DNA from: Gemmatimonadales bacterium
GTDB lineage: Bacteria; Gemmatimonadota; Gemmatimonadetes; Gemmatimonadales; GWC2-71-9
Direction of reading: 5' to 3'
Length of the DNA stretch: 64,000 nucleotides
Assembly (NCBI GenBank): GCA_035699205.1
Contig: DASSBA010000081.1
Location: 2,273 to 66,272, forward strand
The notes beneath the pieces are model-generated. The model saw nothing but the letters and a program-made list of their open reading frames with translations, ran no database searches and had not been told where the DNA came from. A program made the position numbers and the translations under genes. Positions 1 to 62,663 of the stretch are shown in pieces (within the stretch, counting starts at the first letter, position 1; every line of letters begins with the position of its first letter).

Positions 1-692
1 CCCCCGCGGACACCCTCGAGGCGCGCGTTCCGGTGATCTACGTAGCCGGCACCTGCATGAACGCGGGCAAGACGGTCGCCGCCACGGAGCTCGTCCGCGG
101 CCTCGCGCGCGGCGGCTTCCGCGTGGCGGCGGCCAAGCTCACCGGGGTCTCGCTCATGCGCGACGCGCTCGCGATGCGCGACGCCGGCGCCGTCGCGGCG
201 CTCACCTTCAACGACGTCGGCATCGCCAGCACCCACGCCGGCGTCACCGTGAGCACCGCGAAGGGGATCTTCAACCGGCTGGCCGCGTCCCGCCCCGACG
301 TCATCGTCGCCGAGCTGGGCGACGGCATCCTCGGCGAATACGGCGTGCAGGACATCCTTCGCGACCGCGAGCTCATGGATGTCGGTGCCGCCTATATCAT
401 GGCTGCCCCCGATCCCGTGGCCTGCTGGGGTGCCGCCGAGCTGATGCGGCGCGAATTCGACCTCTCCATCACCGCCATTACCGGCCCGGCCACCGACAAC
501 GAGGTGGGCCAGGTCTACATTACCACCGGCCTCGGCTTGCCCGCGCACAACGCGCGGCGGGATGCGTGCGGGCTGCTCTCAGTGGTGCGGACGGCGCTGG
601 ACCAATGGGCGGAGGGGCGGAGCGACGGAGAGACGGAGAGAGACGAGCCCTTCCGAGAGGCTTTCCGTCCCTCCGTCCTTCCGGCATCATGA
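1..692 (+). CDS. P-loop protein, DUF1611-like C-terminal domain; 5'-truncated at the window edge
   Basis: Frame is open from nt 3 to TGA 690-692. Walker-A-like motif VAGTCMNAGKT. Stop overlaps the argC ATG (ATGA at 689-692). DUF1611/DgcN-like assignment is from remembered motif pattern only. Confidence 0.5.
   Translation, partial: PADTLEARVPVIYVAGTCMNAGKTVAATELVRGLARGGFRVAAAKLTGVSLMRDALAMRDAGAVAALTFNDVGIASTHAGVTVSTAKGIFNRLAASRPDVIVAELGDGILGEYGVQDILRDRELMDVGAAYIMAAPDPVACWGAAELMRREFDLSITAITGPATDNEVGQVYITTGLGLPAHNARRDACGLLSVVRTALDQWAEGRSDGETERDEPFREAFRPSVLPAS
619..684. repeat. Tandem-unit hairpin element E1 (8-nt unit, about GACGGAGA)
   Basis: Arms 623-640 (CGACGGAGAGACGGAGAG) and 661-678 (CTTTCCGTCCCTCCGTCC) are complementary at 15/18 positions. 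Lies in the last codons of the first CDS, just before the argC start. Confidence 0.6.
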
Positions 693-1735: not shown

Positions 1736-2943
1736 ATGCGCGCCGCGATTCCGGCGCTGCTCCGGGAGTCACCCTGAGCGAAGCGGAGGGGCCGGTCTCG
1801 TCCTCTCCGCCACCTGCGCTCCTCCCGGTCTACGCGGCGATGCCCGTGCGTCCCGTCCGCGGCCGCGGTTCATGGCTGATCGACGAGGACGGCCACGAGT
1901 GGCTCGACGCCTATGGCGGCCACGCCGTTGCCTCGACCGGACACAGCCATCCGGACGTGGTGCGCGCCATCGCCGGGCAGGCCGAGCAGCTCCTCTTCTA
2001 CTCCACCGCCGTCCCGCTTCCCCAGCGCGAGGCGCTTGCCGAGACGCTGGCGGAGCGCTGTCCCGATCCGCTGGGTCGCGTCTTCCTGTGCAATTCGGGG
2101 GCGGAGGCCAACGAGAACGCGCTCCACCTGGCACGCCGCTGCACCGGCCGGCAGACGATCGTCTCGTTGCGCGGCGGCTGGCACGGGCGCACGGTCGCGA
2201 CGCTCGCCTGTACCGACGGCCCGCGCTACGAAGCGGCGGCGCGCCGCGCCGGCATGCCGCTCAGCCGCAAGGTGCCGTTCGACGACGTCGCCGCCCTCGA
2301 CGCCGCCATCGACGACACCGTCGCCGCCGTGCTGCTGGAACCGGTCCAGGGCTTCGCTGGCGCGCGCGACTGCTCGCCCGGGTTCCTCCGGGCCGCGCGC
2401 CGGCTGTGCGACGAGCGCGGGGCGGTGCTGCTGTTCGACGAGGTGCAATGCGGCGTCGGCCGCTGCGGCGCGTTCAGCGCGGCCGAAGCGGTGGAGGTGA
2501 CGCCGGACGCGCTCACCTTCGCCAAGGGACTCGCCGGCGGGCTTCCCATCGGGGCGGTGGTGGCCAGTCCGCGGCTCACCGATTCGCTCGTGCCCGGTGA
2601 TCTCGGCAGCACCTTCGGCGGCGGACCGGTGCCTTGCGCCGCGGCGCTCGCCAACATCGGCGTGATCGAGCGGGAGGGGCTCATCGCCAATGCGGTCGAC
2701 GTGGGCGACCAGCTCGCGCGCGGCTCCCGTGCCCTCGGCGTGAAGCAGGTCACCGGGCGTGGGCTGCTGCTCGGTCTCCATCTCGATCGGCCGGCCGCCG
2801 AGGCGCAGCGGGCGCTGTTTTCGCACCGGATCCTCACCGGCACCGCAACCGATCCCCGGGTGCTGCGGCTGCTGCCCCCGCTTTCCTTCTCTCCGCGCGA
2901 GGCCGACCTGCTGCTCGCGGGCCTGCGGGAGGTGCTGGCGTGA
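1729..2943 (+). CDS. argD: Acetylornithine (or succinylornithine) aminotransferase, class III PLP
   Basis: Motifs LLPVYAAMPVRPVRGRGSWLIDEDG, GGHAVASTGHSHP, FDEVQCGVGRCG and the TFAKGLAGG PLP-Lys region. ATG 1729 overlaps the argC stop (ATGCTGA). Confidence 0.9.
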   Translation: MLNARRDSGAAPGVTLSEAEGPVSSSPPPALLPVYAAMPVRPVRGRGSWLIDEDGHEWLDAYGGHAVASTGHSHPDVVRAIAGQAEQLLFYSTAVPLPQREALAETLAERCPDPLGRVFLCNSGAEANENALHLARRCTGRQTIVSLRGGWHGRTVATLACTDGPRYEAAARRAGMPLSRKVPFDDVAALDAAIDDTVAAVLLEPVQGFAGARDCSPGFLRAARRLCDERGAVLLFDEVQCGVGRCGAFSAAEAVEVTPDALTFAKGLAGGLPIGAVVASPRLTDSLVPGDLGSTFGGGPVPCAAALANIGVIEREGLIANAVDVGDQLARGSRALGVKQVTGRGLLLGLHLDRPAAEAQRALFSHRILTGTATDPRVLRLLPPLSFSPREADLLLAGLREVLA

Positions 2944-3959
2944 TCAAGCGCGACTTCCTCGCCCTCGAGGATTGGAGCCGGGACGAGGTGAATGAGCTGC
3001 TCCGTCTGGCCGCGCGGGTCAAGCGCGGCGAGGTCTCCGGCGGTCTCGAGAAGAAGGTGCTGGCGATGGTCTTCATGGACCCGAGCCTGCGCACCCGCAC
3101 CAGCTTCGAGACCGCGATGTTCCTGCACGGCGGGCACGGCGTGGTGCTCGAGCCGGGGAGGGGAAGCTGGCCGCTCGAGACCGAGCCGGGCGCCGTCATG
3201 GACGGCGATACCGTCGAGCACATCATCGACGCCGCCCGCGTCCTCGGCCGCTACGCCGACGCGCTGGGAGTCCGGAGCTTCCCCCGGGGCACCGACTGGG
3301 CGGTGGCGCGTGAGGACTCCGTCCTGCGGAATTTCGTGAAGTACTGCGAGAAACCCGTCATCAACTTCGAGAGCGCGCGGCGCCACCCGTGCCAGGCGCT
3401 TGCGGACGCGATGACCCTGCGCGAGAAGCTCGGGCAGACCGAGGGAAAGCGCTTCGTGCTCACCTGGGCCTGGCACCCGAAGGCGCTGCCCACCGCCGTC
3501 CCGGCCAGTGCCGCGCTCGCGGCGGCTGGGCTGGGGATGGAAATCGTCATCGCGCGACCGGCGGGCTACGAGCTGGACCCGGAGGACACCGCGCTGATCC
3601 GCCGCCTCGCCCAGCAGTCCGGCGGCGAGTTCGTGCACATCATCGACGACCCCGACGAGGCCACGGTCGGCGCGGACGCGGTCTACGTGAAGTCCTGGGG
3701 CTCGGTGAAGCTGTTCGGCCAGCCCCGGGAGGAGGCCGCCCTGCGCGCGGGGCTTCGCGACTGGCGCCTCACCCCCGGCCGACTCCGCTCCACCCGCGGC
3801 GGCAAGGGAATCGTCATGCACTGCCTGCCGGTGCGGCGGAATGTCGAGATCGACGACACGGTGCTCGACGGCCCGAATTCCGTCGTGGTCGACCAGGCGG
3901 AAAATCGGCTGCACGCGCAGCGGGCCTTGTTGTTGGAGCTCATAGGCGGTGAGCGGTGA
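2940..3959 (+). CDS. argF': N-acyl-ornithine carbamoyltransferase-type transcarbamylase (ArgF' type)
   Basis: Has SLRTRTSFE in place of the canonical STRTR context, plus HPCQALAD and HCLPVRRN. GTG 2940 overlaps the argD TGA (GTGA). Confidence 0.8.
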   Translation: MIKRDFLALEDWSRDEVNELLRLAARVKRGEVSGGLEKKVLAMVFMDPSLRTRTSFETAMFLHGGHGVVLEPGRGSWPLETEPGAVMDGDTVEHIIDAARVLGRYADALGVRSFPRGTDWAVAREDSVLRNFVKYCEKPVINFESARRHPCQALADAMTLREKLGQTEGKRFVLTWAWHPKALPTAVPASAALAAAGLGMEIVIARPAGYELDPEDTALIRRLAQQSGGEFVHIIDDPDEATVGADAVYVKSWGSVKLFGQPREEAALRAGLRDWRLTPGRLRSTRGGKGIVMHCLPVRRNVEIDDTVLDGPNSVVVDQAENRLHAQRALLLELIGGER

Positions 3960-4021
3960 GCGGTGAGCGGTAACCGGTGGCTCCTTGGGTCACCGCTCAC
4001 CGCTGACCGCTCACCGCTCAC
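3948..4021. repeat. Tandem-unit hairpin element E2 (7-nt unit GGTGAGC / GCTCACC)
   Basis: Arms 3949-3975 and 3988-4014 are complementary at 25/27 positions with a 12-nt loop. Spans the argF' stop codon and the argF'-argB spacer. Confidence 0.8.
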
Positions 4022-4038
4022 GTCTTCCTGGAGACCGT

Positions 4039-6040: not shown

Positions 6041-6064
6041 GTGGACGGGCCCCGCAGGTTCGTC

Positions 6065-6146
6065 GAGTCATCCTGAGCGCAGCGAAGGAGCCATGCCCGG
6101 ACGCATGCCCCCTTCGCTGTGCTCAGCGTGACTCGCGCTGAGTCAC
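6065..6146 (+). repeat. REP-like hairpin cluster in the argE-argH spacer
   Basis: Stem 6073-6088 pairs with 6111-6126 (15/16). Alternative short stems are 6122-6128/6136-6142 and 6128-6134/6140-6146. The 26-mer 6065-6090 recurs at 1766-1791. Confidence 0.65.
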
Positions 6147-6147
6147 T

Positions 6148-7560: not shown

Positions 7561-8003
7561 CCGCCGACCGCCGCAAGCGCCACCTGAAGATTCTCGAGCT
7601 CATCAGCACCCGGGCCGTTCGCACCCAGGAAGAGCTGGCGGAGGCGCTCACGGCCGAAGGGTGGGAGGTGACGCAGTCTTCGGTGAGCCGCGACATCGCG
7701 ACGCTCCGGCTGATCAAGGTGGACGGCGCCTATCGCCGCCCATCCGCGGTGGTGATTCCGGCCGACCCCAACGTCCGCCGCATCGCCGACGGCGTGCTGG
7801 CGGCCGAGCCGGCCGGCGAGGCGCTCGTCGTCATCCACACCCCGCCGGGCGAGGCCAACCGGGTGGCGGTGGCGCTCGACCGGCTGGCCTGGCCGGACGT
7901 GGTGGGGACCCTCGCCGGCGACGACACCATCTTTCTGGCGGTGAAGGACGGCGCGGCGCAGCGGCGGGTGCTGGGGGAGGTTCGAAAGCTGACCGGGGGG
8001 TGA
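7557..8003 (+). CDS. argR: Arginine repressor
   Basis: N-terminal wHTH (RHLKILELISTRAVRTQEELAEALTAEGWEVTQSSVSRDI) and a C-terminal oligomerisation domain (DDTIFLAV). ATGA overlap with argH. Confidence 0.85.
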   Translation: MTADRRKRHLKILELISTRAVRTQEELAEALTAEGWEVTQSSVSRDIATLRLIKVDGAYRRPSAVVIPADPNVRRIADGVLAAEPAGEALVVIHTPPGEANRVAVALDRLAWPDVVGTLAGDDTIFLAVKDGAAQRRVLGEVRKLTGG

Positions 8004-8366
8004 TGCTGCACCCGGCCGGACCAGGTCCTCAGCGGACCGGCGTCACGCGGACACCCTGGCCGACGGCCCGTGTGCCACGGCCCGTCCGGCTGCTCGGCTT
8101 ACGATAGTGGCGGCGCCGGAGGCGGGCGGACGCTGCTCGCGGCGGGGCCACGGCCGGCCGCGGTATGGCCAGCACGGACCAGTCCCGTCGAGCCGTCCTG
8201 GGCGCGTGTACGGACCGCCGCCTCGCCGCCAGCGCGAGCGCGGTCAGCACGGATTGGGCGATGACTCCGTCGCGGAGTATCAAGCTGGACATTTGCGAGC
8301 CTGTGGGAGACCGGCTAACATACCGGCCCGCGGATAATTCACGGTTAGAAACCGGTTAGTGAGCCC

Positions 8367-11240: not shown

Positions 11241-11304
11241 CCGTGGAACATGACCGGCAGCGGTGAACGCGGGCGACCGGACGCGAAGCCGGGCCAGTGC
11301 GAAA

Positions 11305-11330
11305 AAGGGCGGCCCGGGAGGGCCGCCCTT
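11305..11330. terminator. Bidirectional stem-loop between convergent genes
   Basis: AAGGGCGGCCC-GGGA-GGGCCGCCCTT, an 11-bp perfect stem flanked by A-run and T-containing sequence. Confidence 0.6.
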
Positions 11331-11361
11331 CTCGTGTGTTGCACCGGCGTTCGCCGGTGGG

Positions 11362-12735: not shown

Positions 12736-12807
12736 GGTATGACACTCCTTGATGGTCCTCGGCAAGGAGGACTCCCGAAGGAAACCTGTGGTATGAGAGA
12801 GCAATCA

Positions 12808-12836
12808 CATATAGCAGGTTACAGGCCGCTTGTCGA
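12808..12836 (-). promoter_or_regulatory. Sigma70-like promoter for the lipoprotein gene
   Basis: Minus strand reads TCGACA-17 nt-TATATG (-35 at 12836-12831, -10 at 12813-12808). Confidence 0.4.
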
Positions 12837-12979
12837 GGGGTGGTCGATGGGCCGAACCCCGTGGCCCTGTGGCATCTAGGTCATTCCTGCCCATCCCGGC
12901 TTTACCCGGGCGAGGCCCCCACGCCGCAGGGCGTGGCGGACGATCGACACCACCGCCCTCCGGCCCCCGGGCCGGACCG

Positions 12980-15610
<2,631 letters not shown>

Positions 15611-15684
15611 ACAGCCTTTGGGCGGGAGCGAAGCGTGAAAGTAAGCGGAGGGAAGCGCCTCCGGCTATGCCCTGTGCGGCGTAC

Positions 15685-16515
15685 TCAGCCGACCATCACC
15701 GCCGCCAGCGCGTCCCGCATTGCGGCCGCCGACTGCCACCGGTCCTCGGGTGCCTTGGCCAGCGCGCGGCTGATGCCCGCCGCCAGTTCGGCCGGGATGC
15801 CGGGCTGGAGGGTCCGCAGGTCGGGCGCCGGCTGGTTGAGATGCATCTGCAGCACCACCGCCTCGTTCCGGTGCACGAACGGCGGCTGGCCGGCCAGGCA
15901 CTCGAACAGCACGCAGGCGAGCGAGTAGATGTCGCTCCGGAGATCGATCTCCTTGAGCGCCGTGATCTGCTCGGGGCTCATGTAGGTCGACGTGCCGACG
16001 GCGATTCCCGAGCGCGTCAGCCGGTCGCTGCCGGAGGCCCACACCGCGCGGGCAATCCCGAAGTCGAGCAGCACCGCGCCGCCCGGAGAGACCACCACGT
16101 TCTCGGGCTTCACGTCCCGGTGGATGATCCCGTGTCCGTGCGCGTGCTCCAGCGCGTCGAGCAGATGGTCCGCCAGGCGGAGCGTATCCCCGACGGAGAG
16201 CCGCCCCCGCTGCGACATGAACTCGCGCAGGGTGGCACCCTCGACGAACGTCATGACGTAATAGACCAGCCAGTCACGCTCACCCGAATCCAGCAGATGG
16301 GCGATGTGCGGATGGTCCAGCTGCGATGCCAGCTTGATCTCGCGCAGGAACCGGTCGGCCGCGACACTGACCAGCAGCTCCGGATGCAGGATCTTGAGCG
16401 CGACCGGCTCCCCTCCCGGCTGGCGGGCCAGGAAGATGCGGGCGTTTCCGCCCTTGCCGATCTCGCGCTCGACCTCGTACTGCCCCTGGAACGCCTGGCG
16501 GACCAGTGCCAGCAT
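15685..16515 (-). CDS. Ser/Thr protein kinase, catalytic domain only (about 276 aa)
   Basis: Motifs IGKGGNARIF, VALKIL, HRDVKPENVVV, DFGIA and MSPEQ. ATG 16515 chosen; the longer track ORF (to 17016) would overlap the upstream gene and hairpin E3. Confidence 0.8.
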   Translation of the reverse strand: MLALVRQAFQGQYEVEREIGKGGNARIFLARQPGGEPVALKILHPELLVSVAADRFLREIKLASQLDHPHIAHLLDSGERDWLVYYVMTFVEGATLREFMSQRGRLSVGDTLRLADHLLDALEHAHGHGIIHRDVKPENVVVSPGGAVLLDFGIARAVWASGSDRLTRSGIAVGTSTYMSPEQITALKEIDLRSDIYSLACVLFECLAGQPPFVHRNEAVVLQMHLNQPAPDLRTLQPGIPAELAAGISRALAKAPEDRWQSAAAMRDALAAVMVG

Positions 16516-16587
16516 GTCGCGGCGAATGAGCCGGTCCTTGTGGGGGACTCCCGAATGGTTGCAGTGCGGGCGGCTTCGCGCAAGATC

Positions 16588-16674
16588 GAAAGGCGGAAAG
16601 GCGGAAAGGCGGAAAGGGACAAACCCTTCCCTGCGTGTTTCCTTTCTGCCTTTCCGCCTTTCCGCCTTTCCCCC
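16588..16674. repeat. Tandem-unit hairpin element E3 (8-nt unit GGCGGAAA / TTTCCGCC)
   Basis: Arms 16588-16617 and 16641-16670 are complementary at 29/30 positions, each arm about 3.5 tandem units. Sits directly after the stop of the M50-HlyD gene. Confidence 0.85.
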
Positions 16675-18725
16675 TACAGCAGCAGATCCGTCCGCACCCG
16701 CTTCCGGATCCCCCACCAGATGGATCCCCACACGTTCGATTCCCGGATGGTGACGCTCGCCTCCCCAGTCATCCCCGGCCGCCACCGCGCCGGGCCGCCC
16801 ATCCCGATCCGCGCCTCCACCGTCCCCGAGCCGGCCGACGAGAGCTGCGCCACCCCCGTGACCCGCGCGTCCATCGTCCCGCCGTCCGCATGGAACACCA
16901 GCCGCGCCCGCTGTCCGGCGCGCACCCGCGTGGCCCCCGCGCCGGTGAGCGCGATCCGGACCTCCAGCGAATCCGGTTGTCCCAGCTCCATCAGCCCCTG
17001 GCCAAGGCTTACCCACTGGCCCGTGAGCTCCTCCGGCCGCCGGGTCACCACCACCCCGGCGGTCAGCGCCCGGACGGTCAGCGCCTGCTGCTCCACGGTC
17101 ATCCCCTCGAGCCGGGCGGCGTCGGTGGCGCGCTCGGCGGCCAGTCGGGCGACCTCGGACGTCCGCCCGGCGGCGCGCGCCTGCGCCTCCCGGGCCACCA
17201 GCGAATCCACCCGCCGCCCCGCGGCCAGGGCCGCGCGCTCCAGGTCCAGGTCACGCACCTCGACCAGCGGCATGCCCGACTCCACCCGGGTGCCCTCGCG
17301 TACGTACACCCGGGAGACCAGTCCGCTGTCGGGGGCGGTGAGCGGCAACGACAGCGCGGGCGCGACGGCGAACTGCCCGGTCACCGTGATCGGCCGCGGC
17401 ACGAGCGCGCCGAGCACGAGCAGCATCGCCGCCCCCGCGAGCAGCCGGTCGCGGAAGCGGCCGGTGTCGATCCTCGCCCGGAGCTCGCGCCAGCCGGCCG
17501 CGACCGTCTGGGCCGCGCTCCGGACCGCCTGCCGGGTCATCAGCCAGACGGCGATGGCGAAGAGCACGCCGCCGGCGAGGCCGAGCGCGCCGTCGAGCCA
17601 GCCGTACACGGTGCCGGCCACGACCAGCATGATCGAAGTGATATAAACCGCCGCCAGCACGGCGTAGACGATGAAGATCCGCTGTTCCCGCTCGTCGGCC
17701 GGCGGGGCGGGAACCTCGAGTCGGAATACCCGCGTCTTCACCAGCCAGCCGAGGTGCGCGAAGGCACGCTGCCGGAGGTTCGGCACCTCGAGGTAGTCGC
17801 TCAGCGCGAAGTAGCCGTCGAGCGGGATCAGCGGGTTGGCGTTCATGACGACGGTGGTGATCCCGCCGAAGAGCACGGCGGAGAGCGCGATGTGCGAGAC
17901 CAGCGTGTCCGGCTCCGCCGCCCACCAGACGATTGCCGCGAGGCTGGCCGCGACGAGCTGGATCCACGAGCCCGCCGCGGTCACCCAGAGCCGGGCCTTG
18001 AGCTCGGGAAACGTCCACGCATCGTTCACGTTGCAGAAGAATGCCGGCTCGAAGTACAGCAGCATCGCGCCGATCTCGTGCACCTGTCCGCCGAAGTGTT
18101 TGCAGGTATATCCGTGCCCCAGCTCGTGGACCACGATGATGGCCGTGGCCGTGGACCAGAGCACGAACAGCTCCCAGGCGGAGTAGCGGAAGTGATAGAA
18201 GTCGCCGAACGCCGCCATGAGCTCGGGCCATTTGACGGCGACGACGAGCAGGTAGATGGCGAACAGGAACACCGAGGCGACGAGGAAGCCGCGGGTGAAC
18301 ATCCAGCGGATGTAGGGGATGGTGCGGTCCATGAAGTGATCGGGATCGCCGACCGACCAGCGGAGCCGCAGGATATCGCCCTGGAACGGTCCCGTCGCGA
18401 GACGCTGCCGGCGCTGAGCGCGGAGCCGTTCCATCATGAGCACGGAGCGTTCACCCAGCGTGCGCTCGAGCAGCCCCATCGTCTTGAGCTTGTTCGCGAA
18501 CCCCTCGACCGCCGCGGCCGAGACCCGGAGCCCGGCCGCGACCAGCTCCTCGGCGATCTCGGCCGCGCTGCGGGTGCCGTCGAATTGTCGAATGACGTTC
18601 ACTTCCACCGGCCGGAATCGGAAATACTTCCTGGTCGTGGGGTCCTTCAGGATGAAGCTCTGCTCGCCGCGGTAGGTCTGCTCGACGAGCGTCAGGTCGG
18701 CGCGGAGCTTCGGCGCGGTGGTCAC
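16674..18725 (-). CDS. Fusion protein: PqqD/RRE-like N-terminal domain, M50 (site-2 protease) membrane metalloprotease, C-terminal HlyD/MFP-like domain
   Basis: HELGH zinc motif and NANPLIPLDG motif within a multi-TM core. N-terminus FRFRPVEVNVIRQFDGTRSAAEIAEEL...GLLE. C-terminus has lipoyl-like, coiled-coil and barrel MFP pattern. GTG start overlaps the upstream TGA (GTGA). Confidence 0.8.
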   Translation of the reverse strand: MTTAPKLRADLTLVEQTYRGEQSFILKDPTTRKYFRFRPVEVNVIRQFDGTRSAAEIAEELVAAGLRVSAAAVEGFANKLKTMGLLERTLGERSVLMMERLRAQRRQRLATGPFQGDILRLRWSVGDPDHFMDRTIPYIRWMFTRGFLVASVFLFAIYLLVVAVKWPELMAAFGDFYHFRYSAWELFVLWSTATAIIVVHELGHGYTCKHFGGQVHEIGAMLLYFEPAFFCNVNDAWTFPELKARLWVTAAGSWIQLVAASLAAIVWWAAEPDTLVSHIALSAVLFGGITTVVMNANPLIPLDGYFALSDYLEVPNLRQRAFAHLGWLVKTRVFRLEVPAPPADEREQRIFIVYAVLAAVYITSIMLVVAGTVYGWLDGALGLAGGVLFAIAVWLMTRQAVRSAAQTVAAGWRELRARIDTGRFRDRLLAGAAMLLVLGALVPRPITVTGQFAVAPALSLPLTAPDSGLVSRVYVREGTRVESGMPLVEVRDLDLERAALAAGRRVDSLVAREAQARAAGRTSEVARLAAERATDAARLEGMTVEQQALTVRALTAGVVVTRRPEELTGQWVSLGQGLMELGQPDSLEVRIALTGAGATRVRAGQRARLVFHADGGTMDARVTGVAQLSSAGSGTVEARIGMGGPARWRPGMTGEASVTIRESNVWGSIWWGIRKRVRTDLLL

Positions 18726-19699
18726 GGCGTGGCTTTCACCACCTCTTCGCCCGCCGCGATGCCGCTCACCACCTCGACCCGGTCGCCGTCGAGGTCCGCG
18801 CCGAGGACGACGGCGCGCAGCGCGGTGCGGCCGTTCTCCTGCACGAGGGCAAAGCCGTCCCGGGCCACCGCCGCGCGAGGAATCGCCAGCACCCGCCGCC
18901 GCTGCGCGCCAAGCTGGACGGTGACGCTGCTGCCGGGCGTGAGCGACGAGCCGGAAGCGAGCTGCAGCACCAGTTCGCGCGTCCCGCTGGCCGGATCGAG
19001 CACGGGCGAGGCGCGCACCACGCGCGCGCCCGCGCTCGCCCCGCCGGCGGTGAGCACCCGGGCCTCGGCGCCCACGCGAAGGCCGGCCGCCGCGCCCTCG
19101 GGCACGTGGACCGTGGCCAGGACCGGCGCCAGCGCGGTAACGCGGAACAGCGAGTCGCCGGCGTTGACCAGCCGCTGGACCCGGGCCATCCGCGCCGTGA
19201 CCACCCCGGCGAACGGCGCGACGATCCGGGTGAGGTCGTAGTCCCGCTGCGCCTGGCGGAGCGCCAGCTCGGCGTCGCGGTGCTCGAACTCCACCTGCTC
19301 GCTGTCCGCCCGCGTGACCACCCCCGCGGTGGCCAGGGCGCGCTGGCGCTCGACCCGCTGCGACGCGTTGGCCGACCGCTCGCGCGCCTGCGCGAGGGCG
19401 ATCTCCTGATCGGTGCTCTCGAGCCGGGCGAGCGGCTGGCCCGCGGACACCCGGCTGCCCATGTCCACCAGGATGCTCTCGACGATGCCCGACGACCGCG
19501 CCACGACCGCCGCGTCGTGTTCCACGTACAGTTGCGACGGCAGGGTGAGCGGCCGGTCCACCGTGGTGCTCTCGGCGGTCGCCACCGCGCCGGAAGGAGT
19601 GGCTGCGAGGGATGCGGAGGCGGCGGTCTGGACCGGAGGCGCGACCTCCCCGCCGCAGGCCGCCAGGAGGAGCGTCACGGGAACGACGAGGCGGGTCAT
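18722..19699 (-). CDS. HlyD-family periplasmic adaptor (membrane fusion protein) lipoprotein
   Basis: MTRLVVPVTLLLAACGG has a lipobox. MFP pattern (LARLESTDQEIALAQA..., IVAPFAGVVTA). ATGA overlap with the upstream gene. Confidence 0.85.
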   Translation of the reverse strand: MTRLVVPVTLLLAACGGEVAPPVQTAASASLAATPSGAVATAESTTVDRPLTLPSQLYVEHDAAVVARSSGIVESILVDMGSRVSAGQPLARLESTDQEIALAQARERSANASQRVERQRALATAGVVTRADSEQVEFEHRDAELALRQAQRDYDLTRIVAPFAGVVTARMARVQRLVNAGDSLFRVTALAPVLATVHVPEGAAAGLRVGAEARVLTAGGASAGARVVRASPVLDPASGTRELVLQLASGSSLTPGSSVTVQLGAQRRRVLAIPRAAVARDGFALVQENGRTALRAVVLGADLDGDRVEVVSGIAAGEEVVKATP

Positions 19700-26936: not shown

Positions 26937-28085
26937 TTACAGTGTCGTCAGCCGTCCCGCCAGCTCCTCGAGCGTGGCCACGCTGGCGGCGGGCACCAGC
27001 TCGTCCACGTGCGGCAGCGCGGCCCGGAGGCCCACGGTGCTCGGCTCGAACCCCGGACGCGCGGCGAGCGGGTCGATCCAGAGCAGCCGGTGGCAGGAGC
27101 GCCGGAGCGTGGCCATCTCGCGCGCGAGGAGCGCCGGATCCCCGCGCTCCCAGCCGTCGGAGACGAGCAACACGACGGCGCTGCTCCGCACGGTGCGCCG
27201 CACCCACCGGCGATTGAGCTCGTGCAGGCTCTCGCCGATCCGCGTGCCGCCGCTCCAGTCTACCACCTTCTCGGCCACCCGCCGGAGCGCGGCTTCGGGG
27301 CTCCGGAGCCGGAGCTGGCGGGTGATCCGCGTGAGCCGCGTCCCGAAGACGAACACCTCGAGGGGTGCGCCGCTCTGCTGGAGCGCATGGGCGAAGCGCA
27401 GCATGAACCGGCTGTAGCGCTCCATGCTGCCGCTGATATCGCAGACCAGCACGATCGGCCGGGGCCGTTCCGTCCGTCGCAGCCAGCGCCAGCCAAGCGC
27501 CTCGCCGCCGGTGCCCATGGCCCGGCGCAGCATCAGCCGGGCGGCGGGCCGGTGGCCGCTGCGTCCGCTCCGGCTTCGCCGGGCCCGGCGCACCGGCAGC
27601 CGCGGCCGGAGCGCCTCGATCATTGCCTGGGCGTCGCGTGCCTCATCGGCGGTGAGGATGCCGAAGTCGGCGGTGCGCAGCTCCGCCAGCGCGCTCGCGG
27701 CCCCCGGCCGCACCGCGGGAAGCATGTGAGCCTGGCCGGCGGCGGCATCCGGCCCCGCGGGATCGGCCGGCCGCTCGCGGCGCGTCTCCTGCCGCATCCG
27801 CGGGAGCCGGTCGCTGACGCCCGACCCGCTTCGCCGCCGCCAGAACAGGTCGAAGGCGGCCTCGTACAGCCGGACGTCCTCCCGCCGACGGACGAAGATG
27901 GCGCGGCCGGCGGCGCGCACGTCGGCGCGCCGCTCGAAGCCGAGCAACGCGAGGGCCTGGAGGAAGGTGGCGGTCTGTCCGCCATCCGCGCCGAGGCCCG
28001 CCCGGCGGAGGAGGCGCCCGAACCGGGCGACGTTGGCGAGGAACACCTGGCCATCGATCGGGTCTAACGGGATCGAATCTTGCAC
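26937..28085 (-). CDS. VWA-domain protein, CoxE-like
   Basis: MIDAS region IVLVCDISGSM plus LLVSDGWERGD. GTG 28085 is preceded by GAGGGGGAAA. Confidence 0.8.
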   Translation of the reverse strand: MQDSIPLDPIDGQVFLANVARFGRLLRRAGLGADGGQTATFLQALALLGFERRADVRAAGRAIFVRRREDVRLYEAAFDLFWRRRSGSGVSDRLPRMRQETRRERPADPAGPDAAAGQAHMLPAVRPGAASALAELRTADFGILTADEARDAQAMIEALRPRLPVRRARRSRSGRSGHRPAARLMLRRAMGTGGEALGWRWLRRTERPRPIVLVCDISGSMERYSRFMLRFAHALQQSGAPLEVFVFGTRLTRITRQLRLRSPEAALRRVAEKVVDWSGGTRIGESLHELNRRWVRRTVRSSAVVLLVSDGWERGDPALLAREMATLRRSCHRLLWIDPLAARPGFEPSTVGLRAALPHVDELVPAASVATLEELAGRLTTL

Positions 28086-28100
28086 GCCAATTTCCCCCTC

Positions 28101-28769
28101 ATGCAGCGCTTCGACTGCTCCGCTATCCTGTTCGATCTCGACGGTGTCCTGGTGGACTCCGCCGCTTTCGTCGAACGGCAGTGGCGCCGCTGGGCCACGG
28201 CCCGCGGGCTCCGGCCGGAGCCGTTCCTGCGGGTCTGCCATGGCCGCCGCGCTCTGGAAACGATCCGGATCGCCGCGCCGGAGCTCGACGCCGAGGCCGA
28301 GGTCAGGGCCTTCCAGCCGGAGGACGCGGAGGACGCCCAGCCGATCGCTCCGCTGCCGGGCGCCGGCCGCCTCCTCTCGGCGCTCCCTCCCGGGAGCTGG
28401 GCCGTGGCGACCTCGGGTCCCCGATCGAGCGCCACCGAGCGGCTCCGCCGGGCTGGACTGCCGGTGCCGGAGGTGCTGGTCTGCGCCGAGGATGTGGCCA
28501 GCGGGAAGCCGAGTCCCGACGCGTACCTGCTTGCGGCTCGGCGGCTCCAGGTCGTGCCGGCCGGTTGCCTGGTCGTGGAGGACGCACCCGCCGGGATCGA
28601 CGCCGCCCGCGCCGCCGAGATGCGCGTCATCGCCCTCACCACAACCTACCCGACCGACCAGCTCCCGGCCGACGCCTGCGCCCAATCGCTCGCCGGCGTC
28701 CACCTTGGCCGCGTGGACCACAATCCCCACGGCCTCCCGCAGTTGGAGATCCTGGTAGTAGAAGCCTGA
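28101..28769 (+). CDS. HAD-superfamily hydrolase
   Basis: LFDLDGVLVDS (DxDG), ...SGKPSPD... and VVEDAPAGI motifs. Confidence 0.8.
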   Translation: MQRFDCSAILFDLDGVLVDSAAFVERQWRRWATARGLRPEPFLRVCHGRRALETIRIAAPELDAEAEVRAFQPEDAEDAQPIAPLPGAGRLLSALPPGSWAVATSGPRSSATERLRRAGLPVPEVLVCAEDVASGKPSPDAYLLAARRLQVVPAGCLVVEDAPAGIDAARAAEMRVIALTTTYPTDQLPADACAQSLAGVHLGRVDHNPHGLPQLEILVVEA

Positions 28770-28804
28770 AGCTACCCGGCTGACCACCGCTCCCCGCTCA
28801 CCTC

Positions 28805-29704
<900 letters not shown>

Positions 29705-31204: not shown

Positions 31205-31263
31205 ACCCCAGCCTACACTGGCGGACCGAAGATTCGGTGAAGCGCGAATGAAACCGCCGAAAT

Positions 31264-37804: not shown

Positions 37805-37806
37805 TC

Positions 37807-37889
37807 GAAGGAAGTCGTCAGTCGTGGGTCGTGGTGTTCGCGTCTGGAAGCACCAACGACTTACGACTTACGACTTACGACTCACGACC
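37807..37889. repeat. Tandem-unit hairpin element E4 (7-nt unit AAGTCGT / ACGACTT)
   Basis: Left arm 37812-37836 and right arm 37851-37876 (about 21/25 plus one bulge). The right arm carries 4-5 tandem units and encodes the last codons and stop of aceB. Confidence 0.75.
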
Positions 37890-39454
37890 TGCTCATACGC
37901 CGCCAGCGTGAGGAACTCCGGAAATCGCTCGGCCGCGAACAGCGCGTCCAGCAGCTGGGCCGCGTCCTTCCACCGACCCGCCGCGCCCTCCCGGAGCATC
38001 AGTTCCTCCGCCAGCAGTGCCCGCACCCAGGCGAGCGTGACCGGCCGGCCGGTCTCCGTCGGCGTGCCGTGGTGGATCCACTGCCATAGCTGCGCCCGGG
38101 CGATTTCGGCCGTCGCGGTATCCTCCATCAGGTTGTTGATCGCCACCGCGCCGGAGCCGCGGAGCCAGGCCTCGAGATACTGGAGCGCCACGCTCACGTT
38201 GCCCCGGACGCCCGTCTCGGTGACACGGCCGCCCGGAATCCGGACGTCGAGCAGCCGGCCGCCGTCCGCCGGCGCGTCGGGGACGTGCTCCTTCTGGTTG
38301 GGCCGGCCGCCCAGATGCCGGTCAAACACCTCGCGCACGACCGGCACGAGGTCCGGATGCGCCACCCAGGCGCCATCGAAGCCCAACTCCGCCTCGAGGT
38401 TCTTGTCCTCCCGCACCCGCGCCAGGGCCGTCCGGTTGACCTCCTCGTCGCGGCGGGACGGGATGAACGCGGCCATCCCGCCGATTGCGTGGGCCCGCCG
38501 CCGATGGCAGGTCCACACCAGCCGCTCGACATACGCCCGCATGAACGGAACGCCCATGGTCACCTGCGCGCGGTCCGGCAGGACGAACTCCTGACGGTGG
38601 CCGAATTTCTTGATGACGCTGAAGATGTAGTCCCAGCGACCGGCATTGAGCCCGGCCGCGTGGGGCCGCAGCTCGTACAGGATCTCGTCCATCTCGAACG
38701 CCGCCACGATCGTCTCGATGAGAACCGTGGCGCGGATCGTCCCTCGCGGCAGGCCGAGCGCGTCCTGCGCGGCTTCGAACACGGAGTTCCAGAGGCGAGC
38801 CTCGAGATGGCCCTCGAGCTTCGGCAGATAGAAGTACGGCCCGCTCCCCCGGCCGAGCAGCGCCCGGCCGTTGTGATGGAGGTAGAGCGCGAAATCGAAC
38901 AGCCCGGCGGGCACCGGACGGCCGTCCACCAGCACATGCGCCTCGTCGAGGTGCCACCCGCGCGGCCGGAGCACCAGCGTGGCGAGGCGCTCGCCGAGCC
39001 GGTACCGCTTCCCCTCGGGGCTGGTGTACTCGAGGGTGCGGCGCACCGCGTCCAGGCAGCTCACCTGCGCCGCCACCACGTTGCCCCAGGGCGGTGAGAG
39101 CGCGTCTTCGCAGTCCGCCATGAGTACCTGCGCGCCCGAGTTGAGCGCGTTGATCATCATCTTGGGCTCGGCGGGGCCGGTGATCTCCACCCGGCGGTCG
39201 TCGAGGTCTGCCGGCGCGGGCGCGACGAACCAGTCTCCCGCGCGCACGGCCGCGGTCTCGGGCAGGAATCCGGGTAGCTCGCCCGCGTCGAACCGGGCCT
39301 GCCGCTCGTGTCGCTGCCCGAGCAGCCGGTCGCGTTCGTCGCGAAACCTTCGCGTCAGACGGGCCACCAGGTCTAGAGCGTCGGGCGTCAGCACCCGCTC
39401 TGCTCCAGCGACACGGCCGCCCGTCACCTGCACGCCGTCGATAGGGCCGTTCAC
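37868..39454 (-). CDS. aceB: Malate synthase A
   Basis: 528 aa. Motifs [33 protein letters not shown] and [12 protein letters not shown]. Confidence 0.9.
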
Positions 39455-39544
39455 GTTTTCCTCCCGGGTCAGCGGCTTCCGGGGCAGGTTGAAGGATGCG
39501 GTCCGAGACGAGCGCCCTCTCGCTCCCTCCGTCCTTCCGTCCGC

Positions 39545-40174
39545 TTACGCCACGTGCAGTACCATGAACGCGAAGTGGCACCCGCTCCCCGCCAGCACCA
39601 GGAGGTGCCAGATCTCGTGGTGCCCGAACACTCCCGGGAACGGATCCGGCCGCGCGCGGGCGAAGATGATCGCGCCGACCGTGTACGCCATGCCCCCGGC
39701 GACGAGCCAGGCCAACCCGCCGGGCCCGACCGCCGAGGCGAGCGGGACCGCGGCCAGCAGCGTCATGTAGCCCATGCCGAGGTAGATCGCGGTGGACAGC
39801 CAGACCGGCGCGTCCAGCCACCAGATCTTGAAGGGGATCCCCGCGACCGCGATCCCCCAGGCGGTGCCGAGCAGCAGAAGCCCCGTCGAATTGTGCAGCG
39901 TGACGAGCGCCACCGGCGTATAGGTGCCCGCGATGAGGAAATAGATGGCGATGTGGTCGAGTGTCCGCAGCGGCCGGAGGCGGTGCGCCGGCAGCGGCAC
40001 CGCGTGGTAGACCGTGCTGGCGCCGTAGAGTAGGATGAGCGAAGCGCCGTAGACCGCGAACGCGACCGTCTGGGCGGCGCTCCTGGCCAACTGGAGCAGC
40101 GCCACCGTTCCCGCCGTGGCGAGCACCAGCCCGACGAAGTGCGACCAGGCGTTCACGGGCTCGCGGATGCGCAT
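39545..40174 (-). CDS. Hemolysin III / PAQR family membrane protein
   Basis: MRIREPVNAWSHFVG..., seven TM segments, C-terminal HHEIWHLLVLAGSGCHF. Confidence 0.85.
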   Translation of the reverse strand: MRIREPVNAWSHFVGLVLATAGTVALLQLARSAAQTVAFAVYGASLILLYGASTVYHAVPLPAHRLRPLRTLDHIAIYFLIAGTYTPVALVTLHNSTGLLLLGTAWGIAVAGIPFKIWWLDAPVWLSTAIYLGMGYMTLLAAVPLASAVGPGGLAWLVAGGMAYTVGAIIFARARPDPFPGVFGHHEIWHLLVLAGSGCHFAFMVLHVA

Positions 40175-59559: not shown

Positions 59560-60914
59560 ACACCGCCTCCACCCCGCCGGTCGAGGAGCTCGGCGGTTGG
59601 CGCTACCCGCGTACCATGCCGAGCCTGCCGGAGGCGCACCACACCGTCCAGGTCCCCCGCGGAGTCTCGTTCTGGCGGAAGGCGCTCGCCTTTGCCGGAC
59701 CGGGCTACATGGTGGCGGTGGGCTACATGGACCCGGGCAACTGGGCCACCGACCTGGCCGGCGGTTCGCGGTTCGGCTACACGCTGCTCAGCGTCATCCT
59801 GATCTCGAACCTGATGGCGATCCTGCTGCAGGCCCTCGCCCTCAAGCTCGGCATCGTGACCGGCCGGGATCTGGCGCAGGCGTGTCGCGACCACTACTCC
59901 CGTCCAGTGAGCTTCGTGCTCTGGGTCCTGTGCGAGATCGCGATCGCCGCCTGCGACCTGGCCGAGGTCATCGGCTCCGCCATCGCCCTCAACCTGCTCT
60001 TCGGGATCCCGCTCATCTGGGGCGTGTGCCTCACGGCGCTGGACGTGCTGCTGATCCTGCTGCTGCAGCACCGCGGCTTCCGCTACCTCGAGGCCTTCGT
60101 CATCGCGCTGGTGGCGACCATCGGCATCTGCTTCGCCGTGGAGCTGGCGATGGCCCGGCCCGCGCTGGCCGAGATCGTCCGGGGGCTGGTGCCGCGGGCC
60201 GAAATCGTCACCAACCCCGCGATGCTCTACATCGCCATCGGCATTCTCGGCGCCACCGTCATGCCGCACAACCTGTATCTGCACTCCTCCATCGTGCAGA
60301 CGCGCAAGGTGCTGCCCGACGAGAGCTCGCGCCGGGAAGCCATCCGCTTCGCCACGCTCGACTCGACGCTGGCGCTGCTGTTCGCCTTCTTCATCAACGC
60401 GGCCATCCTCATTCTTGCGGCGGCAACCTTCAACCAGACCGGCCACCAGGAGGTCGCCGACATCGGCGACGCCTACCGGCTCCTCGCGCCGGCGCTCGGC
60501 ACCACGTTCGCGAGCACCCTGTTCGCGGTGGCGCTGCTGGCGTCGGGCCAGAATTCGACCATCACCGGGACGCTCGCTGGCCAGATCGTGATGGAGGGAT
60601 TCCTCGACATCCGGCTCCCGCCGTGGCTCCGCCGGCTCATCACCCGCCTCATCGCGATCATTCCTGCCGTCATCGTAACCGCGCTCTATGGCGAGCGCGG
60701 CGCGGGCGGGCTGCTCATCCTGAGCCAGGTCATCCTCAGCCTGCAGCTCTCCTTCGCGGTGGTGCCGCTGGTCTACTTCACCAGCGAGCGCCGGAAGATG
60801 GGCAGCTTCGTCAACTCACCGCTGCTCGCCGGAGCCGCGTGGTCGGTCGCGGCCGTGATCGTCGGGCTCAACGGCTGGCTGCTGATCGGGACCTTCCGCG
60901 AGTGGCTGAGCTGA
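59556..60914 (+). CDS. mntH: NRAMP-family Mn2+/Fe2+ transporter
   Basis: [19 protein letters not shown] and [12 protein letters not shown] motifs. ATGA overlap with mntR. Confidence 0.92.
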
Positions 60915-61726
60915 CGCCGGCGCGGCTCGCCCTGACCGCCCTCGGCCTGGGCATCGCACCGCTGGGGGCACAGCAGAAGAGCGCGGCTGATCCCATCGCC
61001 GACAACAGCTTCCTGATCGAGGAGGCTTACAACCAGGACGCCGGGGTCGTCCAGCACGTCGGGACGCTCGTCAGGGTCGATGGCGGCGGCGCCATGGCCT
61101 ATGCCTTTACGCAGGAGTGGCCGCTCCACGGAATGAAGCGGCAACTCAGTTACACCATCCCCCTCTTGCAGGCGGATGGCAGCGGCACCGGCATCGGCGA
61201 TGTCGCCCTCAACTTCCGCTACCAGCTCGCGGGCGATGGTGGCGATGGCCTCCATCTCGCCCCTCGCATGACCCTGCTCCTCCCCACGGGTGACGAGCGC
61301 CGGGGCCGCGGCGCCGGCGGCGTGGGGCTTCAGGCCAACCTGCCCTTGAGCGTCCGGCCGCTCCCGCAACTCGCGCTGCACGGCAACGCCGGCCTCACCT
61401 ACACCCCCGTGACGAAGAACGCCGCGGAACAGGCGGCGCGCACGCTGAACGTCAATCTCGGCGGCAGCGCCATCTGGCTGGTCCGGCCGACGTTCAACCT
61501 CATGCTCGAGCTGCTCTGGCTGAGCACCGAACAGGTGGTCGGTCCGGGAGAGCGGATGCGGCAGAGTGGCTGGCTCCTGAATCCCGGACTGCGGGGGGCC
61601 ATCAACTTCGCGGGCGGGCTGCAGATCGTTCCCGGCGTGGCCTACACCGTCGGACTTGACGAAGGCGCCGGCGAGGACGGTCTTTTCCTGTATCTGAGCT
61701 TCGAGCACCCGTTCCGGCGAAGTTGA
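60902..61726 (+). CDS. Outer-membrane beta-barrel protein (MetA-pathway/transporter-like barrel)
   Basis: Signal-like [17 protein letters not shown], alternating beta pattern, C-terminal [12 protein letters not shown] 60902 overlaps the mntH end by 13 nt. Confidence 0.6.
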
Positions 61727-61734: not shown

Positions 61735-61820
61735 TTCACCACGGAGGCACGGAGGTACCCGGAGGCTGTTACCCTTCACTCCTCTGTGAGTCTCCGTGCC
61801 CTCTGTGCCTCTGTGGTGAA
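61735..61820. repeat. Tandem-unit hairpin element E5 (8-nt unit CACGGAGG / CCTCTGTG)
   Basis: TTCACCACGGAGGCACGGAGG... pairs with ...CCTCTGTGCCTCTGTGGTGAA. Several G-T oppositions on the plus strand. Sits between the barrel gene stop and the ABC permease start. Confidence 0.8.
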
Positions 61821-61826: not shown

Positions 61827-62663
61827 GTGACCACGCCCATCCCGCTCCTCAATTCGCTGCTGCTCGCCGCCGCCGTTCTGCCGGCACCCGCACTGGCCCA
61901 GCTCCCCGCCGTCTCCATTGAGCGCCGCCTCGCCCAGGACCTCTCGCTCCGCGTCGGCGACACGATCCGCCTCGGCACCGCTCCCGATTCGATGGGGCTC
62001 GTCGCCACCGTCGCCGCCGTCTACGAGCCCCGCCCCGATCCCGCCGAGATCGCCAAGGTCGAGCGCCACCTGCGCATGCACCTGCCCGACCTGGCCGTCC
62101 TCCTCGGCGCTCCCGACCGGGTGGACCGTTTCGGCGTCGGGCTCGTCCCCGGCACCGCGGTGGACAGTGCCGTCGCCGCGCTCGAGCGGAACGCCTTCGG
62201 TTTTCGGGTCTATCCATCCGCCGCCATCGCCGCCGAATCGTCGGAGACCTTTCTCGTGGTGAGCCGGTTCCACCGCGCCATCGCGATCATCACCATCGTC
62301 GCGAGCGCCGTCTTTCTGCTCTGCATCATGCTGCTCAAAGTGGAGGAGCGCCGAATGGACGCCGCGGTCATGCGCTTCGTCGGCGTGCGCCGGCGCACGA
62401 TCTTCGGCGCGCTGCTGCTCGAGGCCGCGTTGGTGGCGGCGCTCGGCTGCGTCATCGGAACCGGGCTCGCGCTGGTGGCCGGCGCCGCCACCAACGCCTA
62501 CTACCGCAGCTTCTTCGACACCGCGCTCACCTTCTCCCTCGTCACGCCCGGCATCGTGCTGTTCAGCGTAGCGCTCTCGCTTGCGCTCGGGCTGCTGGCC
62601 GGCGCCGCGGCGGCTTGGCGGTTGGTGCGCACCCGCCCGATGGTGCTCTGGGGCAGGGGATGA
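61827..62663 (+). CDS. FtsX/MacB-like ABC transporter permease (short form)
   Basis: N-terminal TM/signal segment, a periplasmic domain, and three C-terminal TM segments with an FtsX pattern. Confidence 0.7.
   Translation: MTTPIPLLNSLLLAAAVLPAPALAQLPAVSIERRLAQDLSLRVGDTIRLGTAPDSMGLVATVAAVYEPRPDPAEIAKVERHLRMHLPDLAVLLGAPDRVDRFGVGLVPGTAVDSAVAALERNAFGFRVYPSAAIAAESSETFLVVSRFHRAIAIITIVASAVFLLCIMLLKVEERRMDAAVMRFVGVRRRTIFGALLLEAALVAALGCVIGTGLALVAGAATNAYYRSFFDTALTFSLVTPGIVLFSVALSLALGLLAGAAAAWRLVRTRPMVLWGRG

Follow-up and report, generated by a model that had tools for sequence, protein, structure and literature searches.

Hairpins with arms of tandem heptamers or octamers recur at gene ends across the Gemmatimonadales

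Hairpins in which each arm consists of a short unit repeated in tandem were analysed in a 64,000-nucleotide (nt) stretch of the genome of a Gemmatimonadales bacterium (assembly GCA_035699205.1, contig DASSBA010000081.1, positions 2,273 to 66,272), referred to below as the window. Such inverted pairs of short tandem arrays, with a unit of 7 nt or less often 8 nt, are a lineage-wide feature of Gemmatimonadales genomes, and their anatomy, distribution, polarity and turnover could be read directly from the sequences compared. With rather more confidence than doubt, we read them as inverted pairs of heptamer or octamer simple sequence repeats (SSRs) that turn over in place, and whose stems are likely to punctuate the mRNA of operons.

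The window has a G+C content of 71.9%, and 94% of it is coding according to gene calls made with a codon-usage caller trained on the data; the gene neighbours of the hairpins were named by Pfam. All five hairpins put forward in a preliminary description of this DNA (E1 to E5) are present, at or a few bases from the positions proposed, and share one design, in which a unit of 7 or 8 nt, repeated three to five times, is followed by a loop and a run of the reverse-complement unit. The loops are ~20-45 nt long and are often themselves partly paired. As had been supposed, the periodic arms can pair in several registers, and 20-24 pairs are left when the arms are offset by one unit. There are four or five unit types among the five hairpins, and no loop is common to any two of them. 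Minimum free energies (MFEs) were obtained with RNAfold from stretches of 100-115 nt.

Hairpin E1 (607..688; MFE -52.9 kcal/mol) has the 8-mer unit GACGGAGA, with TCCGTCCY in the opposite arm; the 5' arm reads GGGCGGAG GGGCGGAG CGACGGAGA GACGGAGA and the 3' arm TTTCCGTCCCTCCGTCCTTCCG. It is the weakest of the five, with a 23-bp stem that contains G:U pairs and mismatches, and it encodes the final ~25 codons of the open reading frame (ORF) 3..692(+), whose TGA overlaps the argC ATG at 689. This ORF, located 5' of argC, has no Pfam match, and its motif ..TGPATDNEVG..LGLPAHNARRDA..W is kept in all relatives, which marks it as a conserved member of the arg gene cluster without an assignment. Hairpin E2 (3946..4027; MFE -69.2 kcal/mol) is built of the 7-mers GGTGAGC x4 and GCTCACC x4.6, which can also be read as GCGGTGA x3.7 and TCACCGC x4.6, and lies between argF/OTC (2940..3959) and argB (ATG at 4039). 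The argF stop codon TGA (3957-3959) comes from the second unit of its 5' arm, and the Shine-Dalgarno (SD) sequence GGAGA (4030-4034) is located just beyond the stem.

The third hairpin, E3 (16588..16675; MFE -65.8 kcal/mol), consists of the 8-mers GGCGGAAA x3.8 and CCTTTCCG x4.4, the 5' arm being also given as GAAAGGCG x3.8, and has 32 consecutive pairs if G:T is allowed. It separates two minus-strand genes, as it touches the stop of an M50/HlyD-like gene, 16674..18725(-), and lies 73 nt upstream of the start of a Ser/Thr kinase gene at 16515 (minus strand). E4 (37807..37890; MFE -44.1 kcal/mol) has the 7-mer unit AGTCGTN, with a 5' arm of AGTCGTC AGTCGTG GGTCGTG and a 3' arm of ACGACTT x4.7; it begins one base past tRNA-Asn (37731-37806, +) and overlaps the final ~20 nt of malate synthase (37868..39454, -), at a convergent junction. 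E5 (61735..61820; 8-mer CACGGAGG / CCTCYGTG; MFE -61.7 kcal/mol) starts 9 nt past the stop of an outer-membrane-like gene, 60902..61726(+), and extends to 7 nt from the GTG start of an FtsX-like (FtsX-type permease) gene, 61827..62663(+). At the base of its stem, TTCACC pairs with the SD-like GGTGAA of the FtsX-like gene. Under our own codon-based gene calls the proposed position of the hairpins at gene 3' ends or in short spacers stands, apart from E1, which has no spacer and sits inside the tail of ORF 3..692. Likewise, the periodic peptides that had been pointed out in the ORF track are accounted for in part, in that E1 does form ~25 codons of an ORF, but two of the three peptides quoted match no frame exactly.

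Period-7/8 arrays of at least 2.5 copies number six in the window, compared with a mean of 0.28 and a maximum of 2 in 100 dinucleotide-preserving shuffles of it, and in a period scan of the 64 kb each such array belonged to one of the hairpins E1-E5. Two sets of relatives were then collected by means of ArgB: 80 loci from species-representative genomes (set 1; ArgB identity 75% to 95%) and a further 80 from metagenomes (set 2; identity up to 98%), the titles of both being almost all Gemmatimonadales or Gemmatimonadota. Single loci of these sets are given below as L numbers. When the 1.32 Mb of set 1 was scanned with the cut-off of at least 2.5 copies, period 7 accounted for 89 of 131 arrays, followed by periods 8 (27), 6 (7) and 9 (5), with at most one each for the others. 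This bias was replicated in set 2, in which 45 of 57 arrays had period 7 and six had period 8, other periods being found at most three times. Hairpin arms make up 72 of the 121 arrays of period 7, 8 or 9, and the hairpins of relatives have medians of 89 nt, 33 pairs and -55 kcal/mol, with an element density of ~77 per Mb, like that of the window. Direct-only arrays of up to 10 units are also seen in relatives, at the same sites. An artefact of chance or low complexity is ruled out by the shuffles and by the recurrence of the elements in more than 100 independent assemblies.

With regard to gene orientation, 70 elements sit at co-directional junctions, 10 at convergent junctions, 1 at a divergent junction and 7 inside genes, in a sample that comes mostly from the arg region and its orthologues and whose elements are hence non-independent. 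From the length of intergenic DNA, 14.9 elements should fall in divergent spacers, where the single one was observed (p=1.4e-6). The upstream stop codon falls in the initial units of the 5' arm or no more than ~10 nt from that arm, and the 3' arm ends 12-35 nt ahead of the next start codon. A stop codon is contained in 15 of 21 heptamer 5' arms, against a background of 12%, and such arms provide stops in all frames because 7 is not a multiple of 3. The octamer arms, almost all of which have GGCGGNNN-like units, contain none in any frame (0/15), and this fits their occurrence inside ORF tails, as for E1 and its orthologues.

The arms are also polar in composition. The purine/G-rich arm is the 5' arm, and the pyrimidine/C-rich arm the 3' arm, in 48 of 52 hairpins (p=1e-10), and the same polarity was found in set 2 (13/15 and 14/17 arms). 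Because reverse complementation leaves this polarity unchanged, a hairpin of the opposite design is a different structure, one that is hardly ever seen. In 48 hairpins, the stability of the sense and the antisense transcript did not differ (mean difference +0.8 kcal/mol, p=0.33), the G:U pairs numbering 118 and 130 respectively, and the asymmetry of G:U versus A:C gave no signal of RNA-strand-specific selection. The equal stability of both strands and the strict segregation of G-rich and C-rich arms would both suit an action at the level of DNA, with the elements serving as cruciforms, as periodic protein-binding sites (nucleoid- or replication-related) or as formers of G-quadruplexes or i-motifs, and there is a precedent for this hypothesis for the repeats of Xanthomonas (PMC4692102). 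We regard such an action as highly improbable. Most units (such as GGTGAGC, AAGTCGT and GACGGAGA) are without runs of at least three Gs, so that a G-quadruplex is not expected; the 79 canonical units counted in 101 elements are too diverse for one sequence-specific binder; and placement that depends on gene orientation points to transcription or translation, not to chromosome structure.

A comparison of orthologous junctions in relatives had been proposed as a check in the preliminary description, and it revealed, in agreement with the expectation, that the architecture is kept while the units differ. At the argF-argB junction, 60 of 149 genomes have arrays, 65 have a short or empty junction or overlapping genes, 6 have a dispersed hairpin and 18 fall under other, and 67 changes of state occur along the 148 neighbours of the ArgB clustering. 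The units found at this one junction include GGTGAGC, GTGAAGG, AACGGTA, AGAAGTG, GTGACCG, TAGGTCG, GCTGACG, GGAGAGA and the 8-mer GCGGAACG. Between loci with an ArgB identity of at least 99.5%, the presence of an array was concordant in 12/12 pairs and the unit was shared in 3/3 pairs where both carry arrays. At 92-96% identity, presence was discordant in ~50% of pairs, which equals the value for independence, and the unit was shared in 45%, and below 80% identity these figures were ~47% and ~10%. Array presence at argF-argB is thus randomised by ~4-8% ArgB divergence. The junction before argC shows the same behaviour of gain and loss: the majority of genomes have an upstream ORF whose end coincides with or overlaps the argC start, and in the clade of the window arrays of 7-10-nt units extend from right after the last conserved Trp codon to the ATG.

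At the site of E2, the closest relative, L081 (98% ArgB identity, 88% nt identity), has an orthologous E2 with an equal number of units and ~7 substitutions. L001 (83% nt identity) still has units of this family; its loop can no longer be aligned, and two of its pairs show compensatory changes. In L082 (90% nt identity) the site is occupied by GTCGTGA units, which are two substitutions away from a rotation of GGTGAGC. The left arm of the hairpin in L090 reads GGTAAGC x4 and the right arm GCTCACC x4, resulting in an A·C mismatch in every unit, which indicates that each arm was homogenised separately.

A different, non-periodic family of dispersed hairpins has the consensus GTCAYCCTGAGCGnAGCGAAGG...CCTTCGCTnCGCTCAGGRTGAC. 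In the window it is present at 6064-6135, between an M20 peptidase (argE-like) gene and argH, with a half copy at ~1766-1790. In L007, L011, L013, L083, L138 and L040 it is located at argF-argB (GTCAYCCTGAGCG...), the junction that elsewhere holds the tandem-unit hairpins. It has no Rfam match and looks like a true family of the repetitive extragenic palindrome (REP) or miniature inverted-repeat transposable element (MITE) type. In L012 (250-280), one arm of the dispersed hairpin carries a tandem expansion, TCAGGG x5, so the arms of unrelated hairpins can turn periodic in this lineage.

These observations can be brought together if inverted SSR pairs turn over in place. An array would arise and expand at the end of an ORF, at or just past the last conserved codon or the stop, and a complementary array would be acquired a few tens of bases downstream. 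The pair would then gain and lose units, while the unit itself would drift by substitution and by homogenisation within each arm, until the element is deleted or replaced. Persistence would be limited to sites where the element is harmless, namely the interval between a stop and the next ribosome-binding site (RBS) or a dispensable C-terminal tail, and for this reason the elements would fill exactly the stop-to-RBS interval and avoid the promoter-bearing divergent spacers. Heptamers usually hold a stop in the unit and sit after the stop, and octamers of the GGCGG type can be read through. This reading accounts for the period bias, the direct-only arrays, the homogenisation of single arms, the symmetry of strands, the gain and loss at junctions and the tight fit between stop and RBS.

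With regard to RNA, hairpins that lie inside an operon (argC-argD-argF-argB) should be transcribed and should fold as near-perfect stems of 20-45 bp, and as they have no U-tract they should not act as canonical terminators. RNase III cleaves stems of about 20 bp or more, and long stems block 3' exonucleases. The 20-45-bp stems would accordingly be expected to be RNase III targets, barriers to 3' exonucleases, or both, and cleavage or blocking would punctuate polycistronic mRNAs and, at E5, mask the next SD. Punctuation of operons is, from what is generally known of RNase III and exonucleases, the likely molecular consequence of the hairpins.

Several points weigh against turnover in place. A possible origin by slippage plus template switching, which the preliminary description had suggested, fits the gain, loss and replacement at junctions and the arms of L090. 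None of five locus pairs with at least 99.7% nt identity differs in array copy number, however, and slippage is therefore not fast on the timescale of strains. Two tests of this origin were null. Units were no nearer to the 7-mers of empty junctions than were controls (17/53 versus 34/104), with a seed set that was too permissive. An en-bloc inverted duplication should leave variant units in mirrored order in the two arms, and no such order was detected in 7 informative hairpins. Two local matches in empty relatives, ATCGGTGAAA and TGGGCGGAG, are anecdotal. The strict purine-first polarity (48/52) is not predicted by slippage alone. Of 57 pairs of arrays at different junctions of a single genome, 14 also have a unit in common (at one mismatch or less, in any rotation and on either strand), compared with 6.3% between genomes at non-orthologous positions (odds ratio 4.8, p=1.4e-5). 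This would call for conversion between sites, for copying from one to another or for a bias specific to the genome, local slippage being insufficient. Polarity, within-genome sharing and slow change at the scale of strains are left unexplained by in-place turnover, and cleavage by RNase III and an effect on expression are taken from general knowledge of the enzyme. Lastly, E2 has kept its unit and unit number across ~12% (L081) and ~17% (L001) nt divergence, and this persistence, the compensatory changes in L001 and the conservation of arms together hint at possible selection on the stem.

Such selection is at the centre of an alternative explanation, by which the hairpins are selected RNA elements (candidate roles being termination or attenuation independent of a U-tract, processing by RNase III, or the stabilisation of 3' ends so as to set the ratios of cistrons) and periodic arms are a convenient way to tune the length of the stem. 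We consider this somewhat unlikely. The position strictly downstream of ORFs, the near absence from divergent (promoter) spacers and the tight fit between stop codon and next RBS would all be in keeping with it, as would the location of E4 directly 3' of a tRNA gene, the pairing of the E5 stem base with an SD-like sequence, and the persistence of the E2 architecture over 12-17% nt divergence with compensatory changes. On the other hand, there is no asymmetry between sense and antisense in stability or G:U content, and the argF-argB junction is empty in 65/149 relatives, whose genes there overlap or touch and whose operon thus works with no hairpin. Other relatives have an unrelated hairpin there, direct-only arrays occupy the same sites, and presence is randomised at a divergence of ~4-8% in ArgB. 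The conservation of arms (0.72-0.95, versus 0.17-0.68 for loops, and also above that of synonymous sites in 16 pairs) would favour selection, but similarity of units was the basis on which these pairs had been picked, and a periodic sequence can be aligned in any register; for these reasons the contrast is not counted as evidence of selection.

That the hairpins are not textbook intrinsic terminators, as first described, is borne out by what follows their stems. A T-tract (at least five T within 12 nt 3' of the stem) is found after 3 of 48 hairpins, with a mean T content after the stem of 19% versus a background of 16%, and a scan of positions 1-20000 for consensus terminators found no excess over shuffles and picked none of E1-E3. 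The scarcity of T-tracts and the outcome of the scan led to the rejection of canonical terminators. If U-tract terminators are no commoner than in shuffles over these first 20 kb, other 3'-end signals would be needed, which would favour selected RNA elements; true termination midway through the arg operon, however, would do harm. E1 and E2 lie within the arg cluster, and in relatives without hairpins the genes of this cluster overlap or touch. E4, 3' of a tRNA gene, occupies a convergent junction.

Ordinary short GC-rich hairpins are present in the window at ~11300-11335 (AAAAAGGGCGGCCCGGGAGGGCCGCCCTTCT, between convergent genes) and at ~31262-31300. These look like conventional, partly bidirectional terminators, and the organism therefore also has the usual kind. 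When the window was compared with Rfam at the gathering score, the tRNA-Asn alone was matched. At a permissive threshold E1 and E2 matched generic animal microRNA (miRNA)-precursor hairpins, far below the gathering score, and membership of a known RNA family was rejected from these results.

The units had been held to be unrelated from one locus to another, and this is correct in so far as the design is not one dispersed sequence family, but the 8-mers of the window resemble each other and units are shared between junctions. The three window 8-mers are GGCGG/GACGG-like and differ mutually at only 2/8 positions, and the units of E2 and E1 recur in two one-armed arrays. The first of these (28785..28818, minus strand) is without an inverted partner and reads GGTGAGA GGTAAGA GGTGAGC GGGGAGC on the sense strand, which is the unit family of E2; it fills the 17 nt that separate 28805..29704(-) from 26937..28787(-) and extends into both gene ends. 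The second (39506..39545, minus strand) reads TAA GCGGACGGAA GGACGGAG GGAGCGAGAGGG..., the unit family of E1, and starts at the stop codon of 39545..40174(-). Both arrays start at the stop of a minus-strand gene. A relationship of E1 and the 39506 array as copies of one element was rejected, as their likeness is limited to the arm units. Sharing of units within a genome was found, for example, in L149, L035, L039, L042, L073 and L078, and between genomes the proportion of pairs with a common unit is 11.5% for the same junction and 6.5% for different junctions. Something couples the unit repertoire within a genome. Copies with a common unit have unrelated loops and differing unit numbers, which indicates that whole elements are not being copied.

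Nested composites, in which the hairpin of one unit family (or a direct array) sits in the loop of a hairpin of another family, were seen at L073 1140-1300, L039 7630-7775 and L084 ~470-590. Mobile elements of a structure-defined, non-autonomous type similar to MITEs and REPINs (paired REPs), copied by an enzyme in trans, e.g. a transposase of the Y1 type or of the REP-associated tyrosine transposase (RAYT) type, and with arms diversified by slippage, could produce such nesting. They could also produce one unit at several junctions of a genome and a repertoire of each genome's own, and the argF-argB junction is also the landing site of the clearly dispersed hairpin family. We judge mobility to be distinctly improbable, since unit-sharing copies are unrelated in loop and differ in unit number, and since the five window hairpins with their four or five unit types have no common loop. 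Only units are shared, not the whole elements that REPs and REPINs would share as conserved palindromes, and loop sequences are unconserved between same-unit copies, which is unlike a MITE. No conserved end motif is visible, and no target-site duplication could be discerned, empty and filled sites being too diverged. No transposase or RAYT domain was found in a Pfam scan of 49 of the 53 called window genes (the remaining four being ORFs of 50-63 codons). Finally, the starting point of the arrays is precisely the last codon that is conserved in the upstream gene, in register with the sequence there.

An unlikely further possibility is that the hairpins form a self-propagating, sequence-agnostic class that is defined by structure, in which a genome's own units would be copied between junctions by templated conversion or by a hairpin-specific enzyme, and the long stems, tunable by slippage, would be the main punctuation of operons via RNase III or U-tract-independent termination. 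If this were so, purine-first polarity would be a functional requirement, for example so that no C-rich RNA is exposed to Rho in operons.

Turnover in place, which we favour, also has to be told apart from contingency SSRs that switch genes by phase variation. The five near-identical locus pairs lack the copy-number differences by which such SSRs would be recognised, and the arrays lie after stops or in the C-terminal tails of housekeeping genes.

Other arrays were observed in the same gene cluster. C-rich 8-mer arrays, CCGTCCGC (in the window a degenerate CCGACCGC), are present on the sense strand at the argH/argR overlap, at 7523-7572 in the window and in L001 (4849-4891), L010 (13360-13379), L013 (13367-13396), L020 (13369-13395) and L092 (6966-6999); they are mostly without an inverted partner and appear to sit in the ORF tail. 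Direct heptamer arrays of CGACTCA, CGACTCG or CATAGCC reach the argB start codon without a recognisable SD in L078 (9296-9328), L079 (9974-10000) and just upstream of argB in L131, L132 and L134, and recall the TAACTGA repeats of Beggiatoaceae, which are 5' of start codons. Elsewhere in the window, at 47375-52613(-), an Eco57I-like methylase/N6_Mtase gene adjoins a helicase (ResIII/Helicase_C) gene, and this is a probable restriction-modification pair of a type IIG/III-like kind or a defence pair.

The stems have practical consequences for annotation. They cause spurious ORF extensions and periodic 'proteins', with E1 adding ~25 codons to a real gene, and can mislead predictors of terminators and non-coding RNA, as with the sub-threshold miRNA matches. 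They are also likely hot spots of assembly and gene-calling errors in the metagenome-assembled genomes of an abundant soil phylum.

Among known systems, intrinsic terminators, including the U-tract-poor 'I-shaped' type proposed for high-GC bacteria, share with the hairpins a GC-rich stem-loop just 3' of a gene. Terminators have stems of 5-14 bp, loops of 3-8 nt and a U-tract, whereas the Gemmatimonadales hairpins have stems of 20-45 bp, loops of 10-45 nt and no U-tract in 45/48 cases, and many of them are inside an essential biosynthetic operon. REPs, bacterial interspersed mosaic elements (BIMEs) and REPINs are similar as extragenic palindromes in co-directional or convergent junctions, with transcription inside operons and genome-specific repertoires. 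REPs and BIMEs are known to stabilise upstream mRNA. REPs, however, comprise one or a few conserved sequences of 20-40 nt in hundreds of copies with a RAYT partner, whereas the hairpins described here have no conserved sequence, periodic arms and stems two to three times longer than those of REPs, with no RAYT among the window proteins scanned.

The short tandemly repeated repetitive (STRR) sequences of cyanobacteria resemble the elements in being intergenic tandem arrays of heptamers, with several unit families per genome. Mazel et al. reportedly described three heptamers in Calothrix in 1990. A Calothrix heptamer report is cited by Rehm et al., who found only few inverted heptamer pairs in Nostoc (PMC4692102). 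The TAACTGA direct repeats of Beggiatoaceae and cyanobacteria (MacGregor 2015) comprise 169 direct sets and one indirect repeat, and are intergenic, often a few nt upstream of start codons, with no evident bias in gene function (PMC4679880). Both STRR and TAACTGA repeats are mainly direct arrays and AT-richer, and differ in this from the Gemmatimonadales elements, the majority of which have the inverted hairpin form (72/121 arrays).

The architecture itself is not new, as inverted pairs of heptamer arrays between aligned ORFs are already known from Xanthomonas (PMC4692102). The GGGAATC heptamer arrays of that genus (Rehm et al. 2015, PLoS One) form 70-75 convergent inverted pairs per genome, are preferred between aligned ORFs and depleted between divergent ORFs, and are transcribed, with no function established (PMC4692102). 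The G-rich array is located <50 bp from the stop on the sense strand and its partner <50 bp from the next start on the antisense strand, and between related species the arrays vary in length and sequence while their type (single or inverted pair) is retained (PMC4692102). Heptamers were noted to be over-represented among bacterial SSRs in 2007, an excess that hypothetically reflects the length of DNA held by polymerase (cited in PMC4692102). The Gemmatimonadales elements share with these heptamer SSRs a 7-nt tandem unit, a convergent inverted pair, a bias for aligned ORFs and depletion between divergent ones. Tandem heptamers, typically about four per array (3.7-4.7 copies per arm in E2 and E4), the intergenic co-directional bias and the 5' position of the G-rich arm are common to both. 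Xanthomonas, however, has essentially one unit family (GGGNATC) whose G-tracts form G-quadruplexes, whereas the Gemmatimonadales, in another phylum, have dozens of unrelated or only loosely related units and none that dominates, most of them without GGG, together with an 8-mer class and turnover of units at orthologous junctions.

Detailed descriptions of heptamer repeats have so far been limited to Xanthomonas and cyanobacteria, with no mechanism established (PMC4692102), and our literature search found no description of such elements in Gemmatimonadota. What is new here is the presence of multiple unit families per genome, an octamer class, the dichotomy of units with respect to stop codons, a quantified polarity and a measured turnover at junctions. 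With many unit families, clear rules of position, polarity and stops, and measurable turnover, the Gemmatimonadales offer a richer natural experiment, in which it becomes testable why the periods are 7 and 8, how the second arm comes about and whether the stems affect the expression of operons.

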